Shown piece after piece: positions 57,030 to 61,942 of a DNA stretch of 64,000 bases. The translations under genes and the position numbers were made by a program. Position 1 is the first letter of the stretch. The number at the start of each line of letters is the position of its first letter. The notes beneath the pieces were generated by a model. It was not told the DNA's origin and searched no databases. It saw nothing but the letters and a program-made list of their open reading frames with translations. The stretch comes from a virus (Duplodnaviria; Heunggongvirae; Uroviricota; Caudoviricetes). The DNA lies in the IMG/VR virus record IMGVR_UViG_3300045988_155182. One strand, 5' to 3'.

Positions 57030-57167
57030 GCGCTACAAATCCTTCTGCATGAATAAATAAAGGCCATAACTTATGGCCTTAAATAAATTGTTTTCTACCT
57101 TTTCTTATTTGTGAAAATAAACCAGCACTTGGTAGTGCTTATGTAACAGCAAAGAAGAGAAAAACAC

Positions 57168-57668
57168 ATGAGTAACAAAATCGAAAATCCCGTAGTTCTC
57201 ATTCACAAGCGCGAGAACCACGACTCCTATGCGGTGGCGATCACCAATGGGAGTCACGATTTTTACGATGGCCTGCTAATGGCCTCAGTGTCGCCTGATG
57301 AGGCAGATAACTCTTTTGCCGTCTTCGCTATGGTTGGTTACTACATGGCTGCCGAAATTGAGAAGTTGCTGGCGCAAAGAGACGCATTAGCGGCGGAGAA
57401 TGCAGCCCTGAAAGAATCTGAGCGAGCATTCGATGCGATGTGTGCCGAGGAACACGGAGATAATTGGGTTAGCGAATTGACGGAGACTCCAGCCACCGAT
57501 GCTTTTCTGGCTGAAGTACGTGCGCAGGGCGTGGATATGGCTCGTAACGCGATGATTGATTTTGTTGATGGTGAAGTTGGGCCAAACAAGAACGTTCCGG
57601 GGCTGATTAGAGGCGCAGAGATATGCGTAAGTATTGCTGAACAGCTTCGTAAAGGAGTCATCCAGTGA
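57168..57668 (+). CDS. Hypothetical protein
   Basis: 166 aa; conserved aaaaacacATG start. Confidence 0.35.
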   Translation: MSNKIENPVVLIHKRENHDSYAVAITNGSHDFYDGLLMASVSPDEADNSFAVFAMVGYYMAAEIEKLLAQRDALAAENAALKESERAFDAMCAEEHGDNWVSELTETPATDAFLAEVRAQGVDMARNAMIDFVDGEVGPNKNVPGLIRGAEICVSIAEQLRKGVIQ

Positions 57669-58066
57669 GCAAGATTGACTATCAGGCACTGCGTGAGGCG
57701 GCAGAGCGTGCAATTCCGGCAATGGAACGCCTGTTAATGTTGCCAGTTGATGATGATCTGATATGCGAACAGGAACTTAAAGATAGCGGTGTTGATATTG
57801 ATGCCCTCAACGCCTTCAAATTTCTGGCCGGACCAGAAACCGTGCTGGCACTACTGGATGAGATCAACGCATTAGAGGAAACGCGTATCAACGATGTTTG
57901 CCGTATTGCGGAACTAACAAAACAACTGGAGTTGGCAAAATCAAAACTCAACGAGCAGCGTGAGTATTACGAGGGCGTTATCTCGGATGGAAGTAAGCGC
58001 ATAGCCGCTCTTCTTCGCAAGGACAATCTTGCCAGCGCCACGAACATTGAAGGTGAAAGAAAATGA
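57665..58066 (+). CDS. Hypothetical protein
   Basis: GTG start overlapping the upstream stop (GTGA); 133 aa. Confidence 0.3.
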
Positions 58067-58386
58067 CCACATCGCACTCTGCTATTACCCAAGAAAAAGT
58101 CTTCAACATACTCGAACGACTAGAGACGCTCGCTACGGAGGAGGATATATCCCCGGAGAAACTGGTTGAGTTCAGCCGTGTGATATTGCGTCGCAAGAAC
58201 GATATGGAGCGGCTGACATCTGGCGCTCCATCCTTATCAGTCAGGCGAACACTTTGTTGCAGCTTCTGCAACAAATCCCAGTACGCCGTCAAAAAGTTAA
58301 TTGCTGGGGACGCCGTTTTCATCTGCGACGAGTGTGTGGATGTGTGCAACAGAATTATCCGGGGAGAGAAAGAGGGATCAGCATGA
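58063..58386 (+). CDS. Small protein with a C-terminal ClpX-type zinc-binding domain
   Basis: C-terminal 45 aa [39 protein letters not shown] are nearly colinear with the E. coli ClpX N-terminal ZBD ([36 protein letters not shown]). Confidence 0.6.
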
Positions 58387-58913
58387 AATTTTCCAAATTT
58401 TCTGAGTTGGTGAATCGTATTTTGTCCAACAACCACAGCCATCGTCGCGATATGGATGTAACGATCGTTGTTCATTCGCCTGGTCGCATCGGTTCAACAC
58501 CATCAGTTGAGGTTCAGTCAATTCAGGCGGGTTTTGATTGGGATGCCGGGCAAGTGATGATTTTTCCAGCACAGCCACTGACCACGCTAACACCAGAGCA
58601 GGTTGCTGATATCACTGATAGTGTGCGCAAAGGTCAGTCTTGGCACGCGTATCAGGAATACAAGAAGCATAAAGAGCAGTTGGAAAAATTGTCGATGGAG
58701 TTGGAAGGCGCTAAACAGCGGGAAAAAGATCTGTTTATGGAAAATGTTCGACTTAAGTCAGGTATAGCCGGTCTGATACACCTCGGTATTCGATATGCGG
58801 ATGTTGAGGTCATGAAAATTGCTGGAGATGCCCAGCTTTCTACTCCATGCACTGACAGCATCATAAACAGCATTGCAGCAGGCATTTTCACCAAAGAGGG
58901 GGCAGCACGATGA
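58383..58913 (+). CDS. Hypothetical protein
   Basis: ATG overlapping the upstream stop (ATGA); the track ORF 58254..58913 extends upstream in the same frame. Confidence 0.3.
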
Positions 58914-59095
58914 GAACACTAGAGGTTCGCGCTGAAGACGTAATCCCTGGTGATGTGCTCATAACATCTAAAGGTCAACAATGTGCGGTTAAATCTTTTT
59001 GGATGGAAAATGACAAAGTGACTCTGTTCGGTACGGATGGTTCCGAAACTGATTATGACTACGACGAATTGCTTGTTGTTGAGAGAGCTGCCTAA
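58910..59095 (+). CDS. Hypothetical small protein
   Basis: 61 aa, coupled. Confidence 0.3.
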   Translation: MRTLEVRAEDVIPGDVLITSKGQQCAVKSFWMENDKVTLFGTDGSETDYDYDELLVVERAA

Positions 59096-59748
59096 TGACC
59101 ACCGTTAACAATAAGAAATGCTACCCAAGCGAGAAATATCTTAATGAGCTGATCACCAACATTGAGTTTGCTGCAAGAGCACCAGTTGAAGTCGTGAGAG
59201 CGATTGCAGCAGAGCTACAGAAGCACCGTAAGGCCTATGCCAATACAGCCGCATCTAAGGATGGTTGGATAAGCTGTAGTGAGCGAATGCCTGTAATTGG
59301 CGAGCTAAATTGGAGAACTAGTTTTCCTTTACTGGTTACGTGTGAGATCGGCGTTATACCTGCTTATTACGGCTTTGTGAGCGTTAATGGTGATAGGCAT
59401 TATGGCTTTATGGAGAGTCTTAAATACGGAGACGCTAACGGCAACCATCCTCAAACTAATGAATATGGTCTGATTAGCAATGTCACACACTGGATGTCAC
59501 TACCAGAACGCCGCAGGAGTCGAACAGTGAATAATGCAGAGTTATTTCAGAAAATATCGGCTCTCGCGACTGAATGCCACGCTATAGCATCTGAGCTTGA
59601 TGTTGGCGATGAACGAACCGAGATGTTCGAAATATACAGTGTGCTGCGCAATCTCTGTCGGCGTGGCTACGCCACTCAAGTAGGGCGAATGACTAACCCA
59701 CTACTCTCATCCTGTGATGAGGATGACTCGGATGAGGATGACGAATGA
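59095..59748 (+). CDS. Hypothetical protein with acidic C-terminal tail
   Basis: 217 aa ending DEDDSDEDDE. Confidence 0.35.
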   Translation: MTTVNNKKCYPSEKYLNELITNIEFAARAPVEVVRAIAAELQKHRKAYANTAASKDGWISCSERMPVIGELNWRTSFPLLVTCEIGVIPAYYGFVSVNGDRHYGFMESLKYGDANGNHPQTNEYGLISNVTHWMSLPERRRSRTVNNAELFQKISALATECHAIASELDVGDERTEMFEIYSVLRNLCRRGYATQVGRMTNPLLSSCDEDDSDEDDE

Positions 59749-60128
59749 TGCATAAATCAGTAGCCGGTGAGTTTCAGAAGGAAGTCGATAATACTACCGT
59801 TCTATTGGACGATATTTTAAGCATTCTCGCGCTGCTTGAGGCTGGCGATTGGTCAGAACATTGCACTAAAACAGAGCTAGGCGGTCGGCTTGAAAGAGAG
59901 ATTACACGACTGATTAGCGATGCCCAAAATGATTTGTCACCTGAGCATCTCCCCTGCGATGTAGTTCTTGTGCCAGGGATGAGGATACACGAAGGCGTCA
60001 GAACGAAAACATTATTAACCGCATTACAGAGAAGAGCCGAACTAAGCTCGCGGATAAAGTTGATGCCATCCAAAATATTTGATGTCGTCAAATTTACGCC
60101 ATCGCAACATACTGAGAGAGATAAATGA
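59745..60128 (+). CDS. Hypothetical protein
   Basis: 127 aa, coupled. Confidence 0.3.
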   Translation: MMHKSVAGEFQKEVDNTTVLLDDILSILALLEAGDWSEHCTKTELGGRLEREITRLISDAQNDLSPEHLPCDVVLVPGMRIHEGVRTKTLLTALQRRAELSSRIKLMPSKIFDVVKFTPSQHTERDK

Positions 60129-60751
60129 GCACGGTAGCGAAAGATCTCACAGAAGATATTCTCAATGAAATTATTGCTGGTGCAAATACCTCGCTTGAGC
60201 AACTTCTTGCGTTAGCACTGATAGCCGAACGTCGAGACAGAAATCGTTTTTATGAGCGATTACCAGGGAAGCGACCAGATAGATCGGATGAAGAAGGTTG
60301 CGATATAGACTACATGGAGCCTTCAGAGATTTATCAACTTGGTAAAGATGACGGCTGGAACGCTTATCACGATGCTGTGATGAAGTTGGATGAAAAAGTT
60401 AAACCTCTTTCTCGACCGGTAGATCACGGTTTCCGCGATAACTGCGAATGCTCTAGTTGCCAGACCACGGCCCGTATTTGTTCCGAATTGACAGATAAGT
60501 CCAGCCTAATCTACGAAGTTAATGTAGGCGGTAATACATGGGTCGAATGCACAAGAGCTGCATACGTAAGAGCAAAAGACAAGGGTGAATTAACCAGAGT
60601 TGTTGCCCATCACCCAAATAATGAGCTTAAAGATCACCAGATTAGAGAACTGGTGAACGAGTTGCGGGATATTGCGGTTCAGTACCACGGAACGCAGCAA
60701 TTGCGGGAGAAAATTGCCAGAGCAGTGAACAACTCAGTCCGTAAAAAATAA
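60125..60751 (+). CDS. Hypothetical protein
   Basis: 208 aa; last gene of the long plus-strand block. Confidence 0.35.
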   Translation: MSTVAKDLTEDILNEIIAGANTSLEQLLALALIAERRDRNRFYERLPGKRPDRSDEEGCDIDYMEPSEIYQLGKDDGWNAYHDAVMKLDEKVKPLSRPVDHGFRDNCECSSCQTTARICSELTDKSSLIYEVNVGGNTWVECTRAAYVRAKDKGELTRVVAHHPNNELKDHQIRELVNELRDIAVQYHGTQQLREKIARAVNNSVRKK

Positions 60752-60964
60752 GCAATAGTACGATAAAGAGGCCCCATGCTCTTGATGGGGCCTGTAGCAA
60801 CTAGCGTTATGGACGCTGGTTTACGTACTCAATGATCGCTTTGATAATCGCGAACATCGGCGGCACGATTTTGAACAGTAAGTTAACCATAACAGGCCTC
60901 ACTTAGTTTTATCGCGCCTAGCTGCAAATACCTTTGGGCTTGCCTTTGCAGTTGCAATATCTGT

Positions 60965-61552: not shown

Positions 61553-61942
61553 ATGGGCTTCCCTTCTCCTGCGGCGGATTATGCTGAGAGCCGTATTTCT
61601 CTTGATCAGCAGATAATTAGACATCCTTCAGCGACCTACTTCATGAGGGCAGCTGATAGTCATCATCGTGAGGGAATATTACAGGGTGCATTGCTGGTGG
61701 TCGATTCCTCACTTACCCCGGTTGATGGTTCTCTGCTTGTATGCGCTCTGGATGGGGAATATCGCGTAAAAAGATACCGGAAGTACCCACGTCAGCATCT
61801 GGAGGATTTAAGAACCGGTAAGAAGGAAGCATTGCCAAAGGATGACGATGGATGCACGGGCAGCAATGCCGTGTTTGGTGTGATCACTCACATTATCAAC
61901 GACGCAAGAAGTGGCGAGTTTGATGATTGTCCCGTGATGTAG
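61553..61942 (+). CDS. UmuD'-like protein (S24 peptidase fold, HumD-type, encoded already in the processed form)
   Basis: Begins MGFPSPAADYAE, which corresponds to UmuD immediately after its Cys-Gly self-cleavage site; conserved Ser (ADSHH) and Lys (GEYRVKRYR) positions present; no umuC follows. Confidence 0.8.
   Translation: MGFPSPAADYAESRISLDQQIIRHPSATYFMRAADSHHREGILQGALLVVDSSLTPVDGSLLVCALDGEYRVKRYRKYPRQHLEDLRTGKKEALPKDDDGCTGSNAVFGVITHIINDARSGEFDDCPVM

Follow-up and report, generated by a model that had tools for sequence, protein, structure and literature searches.

This analysis concerns a small gene in a 64,000-nucleotide stretch of DNA from a virus of the Caudoviricetes (IMG/VR record IMGVR_UViG_3300045988_155182), the whole of which is referred to here as the window. 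Direct reading and the table of open reading frames (ORFs) both place an intact 107-codon ORF on the plus strand at 58063..58386, and the C-terminal part of its product is a genuine C4 zinc-binding domain (ZBD) of the type found in ClpX. A first-pass annotation, made from the sequence alone, had reported a 107-amino acid ORF at these positions, and the ORF was found as described. Its features, all on the plus strand, are as follows.

58063..58386 (+): whole gene, comprising an orphan, helical N-terminal part (N-part), a flexible linker and a C-terminal ClpX-type ZBD; RefSeq homologue WP_024187529.1; PHROG 6797
58050..58066 (+): translation initiation region, with a Shine-Dalgarno-like AAGGTGA at 58050-58056 and ATG at 58063-58065
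58084..58221 (+): N-part, residues 8-53; helical hairpin with helices 10-25 and 31-52, predicted in an AlphaFold2 (AF2) model
58222..58251 (+): linker, residues 54-63; low model confidence, length and sequence varying between branches of the family
58252..58368 (+): ClpX-type C4 ZBD, residues 64-102; from Pfam, phmmer and superposition of the AF2 model
58258-60, 58267-69, 58324-26 and 58333-35 (+): predicted zinc ligands C66, C69, C88 and C91, respectively, from alignment
Within the ZBD (+): peptide-binding strand KKLIAG, residues 77-82, and C-terminal helix, residues 89-99

The AAGGTGA motif ends 6 nucleotides 5' of the ATG start, and the gene overlaps both of its neighbours: its start shares an ATGA at 58063-58066 with the TGA stop of an upstream Ead/Ea22-like gene, and its stop shares another, at 58383-58386, with the ATG of the gene downstream. 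The overlap with the upstream stop indicates translational coupling. On the opposite strand, a 165-amino acid ORF (57978-58475) overlapping the gene matched no family and is unsupported.

A ClpX-type domain joined to an orphan module

Residues 65-100 match the Pfam family PF06689 (zf-C4_ClpX) with E=1.3e-15 and 57.4 bits, the gathering cut-off being 27, and a phmmer search of PDB chains returned ClpX only, headed by the E. coli ZBD entries 2ds5 and 1ovx (E=1e-14 over residues 62-102). The AF2 model, calculated from a 29-sequence alignment with a mean predicted local distance difference test score (pLDDT) of 74.8, falls into three parts, namely the helices at residues 10-25 and 31-52, the low-confidence linker at 54-63, and a beta-hairpin and helix at 79-99. 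The ZBD part of the model superposes on 2ds5/2ds6 at 0.9 Å over 38 residues (71% identity), and its treble-clef fold matches 2ds5, 2ds6, 2ds8 and 1ovx with a root-mean-square deviation (rmsd) of 0.9-1.6 Å and a probability of 1.00. The cysteines have the CxxC-x18-CxxC spacing of PF06689; they are kept in 27 of 27 family ZBDs, and the four predicted ligands are invariant in every intact family member examined. The first-pass annotation of a C-terminal ClpX ZBD thus holds on profile search, PDB comparison and model superposition alike, with no ligand lost on careful alignment. No other C..C-x(15-22)-C..C module was found in a scan of the window.

The same annotation had noted the absence of an AAA+ module, and this is confirmed by the NCBIfam ClpX equivalogs TIGR00382 and NF003745, which score 39-42 bits against cut-offs of 359-371 and match the ZBD only (profile positions 4-48). 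With 107 amino acids, no motor and equivalog scores so far below cut-off, the protein is ruled out as ClpX itself. Its description as a near copy of the ClpX ZBD is correct as to domain and fold and overstated as to sequence, as 28 of 40 residues (70%) are identical to E. coli ClpX, DNA identity is 63% and synonymous sites are saturated.

Genuine proteobacterial ClpX ZBDs from 81 loci were taken as the reference; they comprise 11 distinct sequences and are invariant at 30 of 40 positions (ClpX residue numbers count Met1). The 27 distinct family ZBDs keep the four cysteines together with L13, S16, F17, K20, Q22, V25, K27 (22/27), L28, I29, A30 (23/27), G31, V34, I36, D38, E39, V41, C44, N45 and I48. 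Several of these positions are known ligand contacts. On ClpX, the MqsA degron contacts L13, K27, I29 and A30 as mapped by NMR and L12/L13/H23 as mapped by mutagenesis, H23 being shared with binding of the SspB tail (PMC8808172), while Phe16 and Ile46 (older numbering) contact trigger factor, in a hydrophobic patch shared in part with the site for lambda O (PMC7804408). Among the 27 family ZBDs the equivalents of L13, K27, I29 and A30 are retained as Leu in 25, Lys in 22, Ile in 26 and Ala in 23, and those of Phe16, H23 and Ile46 as Phe in all 27, His or Tyr in 23 (His in 16, Tyr in 7) and Ile or Val in 24. The domain thus retains the fold, the strand KLIAG and one conserved helix face (V41-C44-I48) that would suit packing or dimerisation; as a copy of the ClpX surface it is not faithful. 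The window allele itself has two peculiarities: at 58255-58260 a cysteine replaces the equivalent of ClpX Tyr14, making a CC doublet (C65-C66), and a tyrosine (Tyr74) occupies the ClpX His23 position, most family members having Tyr and His at the two sites.

The N-terminal ~60 residues, which had been described as unrelated to ClpX, are so by every comparison made: they match nothing in Pfam, in PDB sequence profiles (the best E values, 0.22-2, are not significant) or, by fold, in the PDB searched with Foldseek. An exhaustive phmmer search with residues 1-62 against 1.84 billion representatives gave 8 matches: one 650-amino acid repetitive protein (P0123), judged spurious, and otherwise only proteins fused to a ZBD or truncated pieces of such proteins. 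Likewise, all 29 intact IMG/VR copies retrieved via the N-part alone carry the ZBD, and two others have a fusion deletion. The N-part is therefore a dedicated orphan module, seen only fused to a ZBD.

In the AF2 model the N-part has pLDDT values of 80-85 and the two helices bear broad hydrophobic stripes. A hairpin of only 45 residues would need a partner, which may be a different protein or another copy of itself, the two then forming a four-helix bundle. Invariant across all branches are eleven charged residues (E11, E18, R19, E21, E26, E27, K33, E36, R43, R44 and D47), and overall N-part identity between the phage-plasmid and P2-type branches is only 37-44%. Linker residues 56-61 have pLDDT below 50, and the P2-type branch has an indel of 3-5 residues there.

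An old gene under purifying selection

Distinct alleles of the family number 27 for the ZBD and 17 at DNA level; two fusion variants aside, none is frameshifted. Over the 17 DNA alleles, the N-part has a median pairwise dN/dS (omega) of 0.24 and the ZBD one of 0.60; these values are rough, as the segments are short and the pairs not independent. Both modules are under purifying selection, which is stronger on the N-part.

Compared with E. coli clpX, the family ZBDs are identical at 27-30 of 40 amino acid positions (31 of 40 for the UTI89 protein by direct count) and only 62-64% identical in DNA, and the proportion of synonymous differences (pS) is saturated at 0.76-0.87 across the family and ~0.84 for the window. 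Recent capture of a host clpX is rejected by these figures. As protein identity has been kept despite saturated synonymous sites, the gene is an old one, with selection maintaining a ClpX-like ZBD.

Carriers and gene context

The full-length protein matches phrog_6797, annotated as of unknown function, with E=1.4e-57 over residues 1-106 of 107, and a P2-type homologue matches the same profile with E=6.8e-58. Clustering at 90% identity gives ~25 groups with the whole architecture, their members coming from Escherichia, Shigella and Salmonella, and single alleles occur on 1000 or more contigs. RefSeq (PGAP) names the protein 'ClpX C4-type zinc finger protein', while older GenBank records, including those of phages P88 and D6, call it 'carboxylate--amine ligase', a misnomer that no profile tested supports. 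In a DNA search the gene was present in 220 of 5,426 complete E. coli genomes (~4%), at 106 plasmid and 127 chromosomal places. A search of species-representative genomes by whole-protein alignment was swamped by true clpX, as in three loci (L015, L041 and L046) that proved to be full-length clpX.

Three types of temperate phage carry the gene, namely SSU5-type phage-plasmids, P1-type phage-plasmids such as D6, where it lies among Ea22-like genes, and P2-family phages and prophages (P88, PhiR44_2, UTI89 and Salmonella), where it always lies between replication gene A and the portal gene. In the P2 family it usually follows directly on ParM/Plasmid_stab_B. This ParM (StbA) and Plasmid_stab_B cassette of P88/UTI89 type stands after gene A and directly 5' of the ZBD gene in three of the loci compared (L003 4491-5766; L119 5665-6940; L121 6439-7714), and a Salmonella context (L124) is without ParM. 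Plasmid-partition functions are present in every phage type seen with the gene, which in the window and D6 is far from the par genes. The P2-family position corresponds to the gpA-gpQ hotspot, where anti-phage systems are enriched and non-defence cargo such as partition systems occurs too; a row reading 'StbA + Plasmid_stab_B + zf-C4_ClpX + hypothetical...' is listed there without testing (Rousset et al., 2022, Table S5; PMC9122126).

Comparison of the window, D6, P88, UTI89 and L121-L125 shows no neighbouring gene that all three phage types keep. A toxin-antitoxin reading, with the protein as a type II antitoxin, was set aside, as no conserved adjacent partner exists in the window, D6, P88/UTI89, L121 or L124. 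The defence models of PADLOC-DB 2.0 gave 0 families for the protein, its two neighbours and the P2-type homologue, leaving a defence-system reading unsupported. Searches of the full-text literature, in which subscription journals are poorly represented, found no functional study of a free-standing ZBD of phages or plasmids. The first-pass statement that no factor of such architecture had been described is therefore right as regards function, and not as regards the family, which is catalogued under its PGAP name, as PHROG 6797 and in Table S5 of Rousset et al. (2022). Two IMG/VR copies (L087 6001-6849 and L102 6001-6822) have an internal deletion just after CDEC. The fourth cysteine and the helix are lost, and what is left of the gene continues in frame into a downstream gene of 176 amino acids; this probably explains the 176-amino acid 'EA22-like' proteins within the 90% cluster of the window protein.

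Around the gene, the DNA matches ~108 kb E. coli plasmids and 'Escherichia phage CMS-2020a' at 99-100% identity, and PhiR41_1 at 96%. The near-identical annotated plasmid pAVS0223-B encodes RepA, DnaE, a DnaB-like helicase, NrdAB, ThyA, ligase and ParB, as well as a DUF1778/GNAT toxin-antitoxin pair, tRNAs and siphovirus structural genes, and the element is therefore an SSU5/pHCM2-type phage-plasmid, in keeping with the mobile-element host proposed at first pass. The gene belongs to a long series of small accessory genes, all read in the same direction.

57168..60751 (+): accessory block of eight genes in the same orientation, with overlaps of 1-4 nucleotides from each to the next
57665-58066 (+): Ead/Ea22-like gene by family match, the immediate upstream neighbour
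59095-59748 (+): DUF551 gene, farther downstream

The immediate downstream neighbour is a PHROG-6026/368 protein, and no convincing promoter was found near the gene. The block at 57168-60751 is a mosaic early/accessory array of the phage-plasmid; it is bracketed by two perfect, GC-rich hairpins with 9-bp stems (57060-57080 and 60769-60793), which could be module boundaries or bidirectional terminators of a mosaic Ea22-type array.

Downstream of the block, the window encodes at 61553-61942 (+) a 129-amino acid S24-family peptidase with the N-terminus MGFPSPAADYAESRISLDQQ. Aligned with E. coli UmuD, it would start at Gly25, just past the self-cleavage site, and would therefore be a naturally 'pre-cleaved' UmuD'-like protein without an N-terminal arm. 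The gene has no adjoining umuC, apbC and metG coming next. With its start past the cleavage site and no N-terminal arm, this protein was ruled out as a tethered ligand of the ZBD.

Free-standing ZBDs elsewhere

Phages of other hosts also encode ClpX-type ZBDs without a motor. The Caulobacter phage Cr30 has a bare ZBD of ~70 amino acids (NC_025422.1, ~81470-81709; L127 2522-2761), whose ORF is mis-annotated: only its 3' end is recorded, as gp170, and gp169 overlaps its 5' end. Cr30 is a lytic T4-like phage, and the Caulobacter cell cycle is driven by ClpXP adaptors. The 65-amino acid 'Clp protease' of Pseudomonas phage PP9W2 (BFVD A0A9E7CCK4) is likewise a bare ZBD, with an rmsd of 1.2 Å to the window model and 39% identity, and corresponds to phrog_12435, a 65-position profile of the same kind that is annotated 'protease'. 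These proteins resemble the window protein as phage-encoded, free-standing and uncharacterised ClpX-type ZBDs, and differ from it in having no helical N-part, in lifestyle and host, and in sequence (~39-44% identity). The free ZBD has so been taken up by phages at least three times, and its independent occurrence in Cr30 and PP9W2 argues that phages repeatedly find it useful.

Metagenomes hold further architectures. Four proteins (P0029, P0033, P0089 and P0117) form a separate family of ~130-160 amino acids, in which an N-terminal ZBD is followed by a second CxxC...CxxC module with the motif C.LCG…PERG.VCG.CA..VE, and two others (P0035 and P0065) join a ZBD to a helical tail; both are genuine non-ClpX architectures. 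ZBDs fused to sigma factors are reported as well (PMC11119718). A wide metagenomic spread of short ZBD-only proteins, by comparison, proved largely artefactual: most of those on long contigs are frameshifted clpX genes, as in P0042, P0054, P0103, P0107, P0108, P0071 and P0038, which run into the AAA+ N-terminus EIKKFLDEYVIGQ and then out of frame. Database counts of stand-alone ZBD proteins are inflated accordingly. Gut-virome matches labelled 'Bacteriophage sp.' were rejected as free ZBDs, being full clpX instead, and phage G has a complete ClpX/ClpP pair.

A possible decoy of the ClpX receptor domain

The observation itself is real and robust. We tentatively suggest, with somewhat less than even confidence, that the phage makes this protein as a trans-acting decoy of the receptor domain of ClpX. 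In this model the C-terminal ZBD would fold and bind zinc as the ClpX N-domain does, and would probably be homodimeric, keeping the beta-strand and hydrophobic groove for adaptor docking. Its ligands would be, among adaptors, the SspB tail and RssB and, among substrates that depend on the ZBD, MuA, UmuD/D', lambda O or initiators of that type, and unfolded MqsA or antitoxins in an unfolded state. Once expressed from the early/accessory operon of the phage, the protein would compete with the ClpX hexamer for such ligands, so that ZBD-dependent proteolysis or remodelling would be slowed and a client thereby protected, while ZBD-independent degradation, for example of bare ssrA tags, would stay intact. 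The N-part, joined through the flexible linker, may stabilise the homodimer as a four-helix bundle, which would add avidity and prevent mixing with ClpX; alternatively, or also, it may bind a specific conserved partner and so lend the decoy selectivity.

Decoy action is plausible and has a precedent in vitro. The ZBD of ClpX folds and dimerises by itself (PMC9035409), and the purified free domain, at 5-20 µM, inhibits the RssB-mediated breakdown of sigma-S by 0.6 µM ClpXP and binds RssB directly, crosslinking to its C-domain (PMC7226468). The P1 antitoxin Phd is a ClpXP client, and ClpXP clients matter for plasmid prophages (PMC10286901). We also count in favour of the decoy the identity and fold of the domain, the retained equivalents of mapped ligand contacts, protein identity to ClpX kept despite saturated synonymous sites, omega below 1 in both modules, the placement of the gene in translationally coupled early/accessory arrays of three temperate phage types, the bare ZBDs of Cr30 and PP9W2, and the precedent of phage inhibitors of host AAA+ proteases.

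Several points weigh against this proposal. The in vitro competition took a ~10-30-fold molar excess of free ZBD over ClpXP (PMC7226468), and a decoy would therefore require high expression or added avidity. At five surface positions that are invariant or nearly so in ClpX (G19, E24, P32, L43 and D46), 23 or more of the 27 family ZBDs have another residue, and I47 is often Val; ligand specificity may therefore differ from that of ClpX. The ZBD evolves faster (omega ~0.6) than the N-part (~0.24), the reverse of what might be expected of a decoy for conserved host ligands, and the greater conservation of the N-part, including its charged residues, points to a function that the decoy model leaves unspecified. 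A search of the element's C-termini for XB-type docking tails gave 1 match, in an unrelated ORF, where 0.87 were expected.

The closest functional analogues are of three kinds, and none, on our reading, is built from the receptor domain of a protease itself. The window ZBD shares with that of ClpX the fold, the four cysteine ligands, the KLIAG strand and most mapped ligand-contact residues, and differs in having no AAA+ motor and in being C-terminal rather than N-terminal, preceded by an unrelated helical module. The laboratory-purified ClpX ZBD is likewise motor-less and free and, by competing for RssB, blocks sigma-S delivery, which is the mechanism that we suggest by analogy (PMC7226468); it is, however, a fragment of ClpX, whereas the window protein is a natural, diverged ZBD with an extra conserved module. 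The enterobacterial anti-adaptors IraD, IraM and IraP are also small proteins that stabilise the ClpXP client sigma-S, in their case by occupying RssB. IraD is proposed to bind RssB at a place that overlaps the one where the ZBD docks. A ZBD decoy would be a functional anti-adaptor. The likeness is functional only, with no sequence relationship expected; Ira proteins have no ZBD, and the range of the proposed decoy would be wider, extending to any ligand of the ZBD. Lastly, T4 PinA and T7 gp4.5, which act on Lon, and lambda RexB, which acts on ClpP-dependent proteolysis, are small phage proteins that blunt regulated proteolysis of the host, partly to keep antitoxins stable (PMC10286901); they target the protease and not its clients, and here too the likeness is one of function only. 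If the mechanism holds, the finding belongs with these phage modulators of host proteolysis.

Other explanations

An unlikely, though by no means negligible, alternative is that the ZBD has been turned to a new purpose, as a generic zinc-stabilised module for dimerisation and peptide clamping, the real activity residing in the N-part and directed at a target unrelated to ClpX, such as a phage or host regulator or a function of the plasmid-prophage lifestyle, with any effect on ClpXP incidental or absent. This would account for the tighter constraint on the N-part (omega 0.24 vs 0.60) and its eleven invariant charged residues, and for the five replaced ClpX-invariant surface residues; other non-ClpX architectures, with a second CxxC..CxxC module or a helical tail, or with sigma factors as reported in PMC11119718, are in line with such re-use, as are the partition functions of every carrier phage type and the adjoining ParM/Plasmid_stab_B of P2-type phages. 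Mere dimerisation, however, would not need the KLIAG strand, L13, F17 and, mostly, H23, all of which are retained. Moreover, the N-part has no detectable relatives or fold match that would hint at an activity, and the link to ParM is not universal, being absent from the Salmonella context L124, with par genes distant in the window and D6.

It is less likely still that the protein acts on ClpX itself, with its ZBD in mixed dimers or its N-part docked on the ClpX ring, so that the receptor is poisoned or ClpXP retargeted; as a surrogate receptor or adaptor it could even send new substrates, for example a repressor or defence protein, to the protease. The invariant helix face V41-C44-I48 and the core residues do fit a ClpX-like dimer interface, two modules with a flexible linker resemble the tether logic of SspB-type adaptors, and conservation of the N-part would suit the binding of a highly conserved host protein such as ClpX. 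On the other hand, neighbouring ZBDs of the ClpX hexamer would pair at very high local concentration, and the isolated ZBD is a constitutive dimer, so that exchange should be disfavoured. Read directly, the sequence contains neither an IGF-type motif nor an XB peptide (LRVVK-like, as in SspB-type adaptors). The first-pass annotation had offered heterodimerisation with host ClpX alongside titration of adaptors; we consider heterodimerisation the weaker half of that interpretation and less likely than a decoy, because the ClpX ZBD dimer would be favoured intramolecularly and the protein probably has a second self-association module.

We regard as improbable a ZBD decoy that serves the lysogen as a defence or exclusion gene, shutting out superinfecting phages that rely on ZBD-dependent ClpX functions, of which Mu-type transposable phages, requiring ClpX for remodelling of the transpososome, would be an example. 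The position of the P2-family gene in the gpA-gpQ hotspot is suggestive, as anti-phage systems are enriched there (PMC9122126), but that hotspot holds non-defence cargo too (Rousset et al., 2022), no PADLOC model matches, and the gene runs in the same direction as the early lytic/accessory genes and is coupled to them, with no cassette of its own and no convincing promoter nearby; in phage-plasmids it sits in Ea22-type arrays. That the gene is a decaying, functionless fragment of a captured clpX, as many short metagenomic 'ZBD proteins' and the two IMG/VR copies fused to a neighbour might suggest, is effectively refuted by the selection analysis (omega below 1 in both halves over 17 alleles), by the four invariant cysteines and the dedicated, conserved N-part, by occurrence in at least three phage types with single alleles on 1000 or more contigs, and by protein identity kept in the face of synonymous sites saturated relative to clpX.

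Significance

The family is abundant in clinically relevant enterobacteria and catalogued by domain name only, its function being undescribed. We would extend the decoy proposal, still more guardedly, to the view that a receptor domain serves as a soluble decoy in enterobacterial temperate phages and, independently, in at least two other phage lineages, with the N-part of the present family a dedicated partner-binding module, and that the decoy selectively changes the set of clients offered to ClpXP. If so, sigma-S, antitoxins, replication initiators or SOS proteins would be stabilised without shutdown of the protease, and thousands of clinical isolates of E. coli, Shigella and Salmonella would harbour a new class of viral anti-proteolysis or anti-adaptor factor that works by 'receptor-domain mimicry'. 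Assays and reagents already available in ClpX laboratories would serve to test the proposed function, and a partner of the N-part, if there is one, would reveal the client or pathway of particular concern to the carrier phages.

Under ClpXP control are sigma-S, the proteins of SOS mutagenesis, several antitoxins, FtsZ and the replication proteins of phages and plasmids; most adaptors dock at the ZBD, which acts as their hub. A natural, mobile ZBD decoy would thus offer prophages and phage-plasmids, among them elements of uropathogenic E. coli UTI89 and carriers of resistance genes, a simple route to rewire host stress responses, persistence and plasmid addiction.

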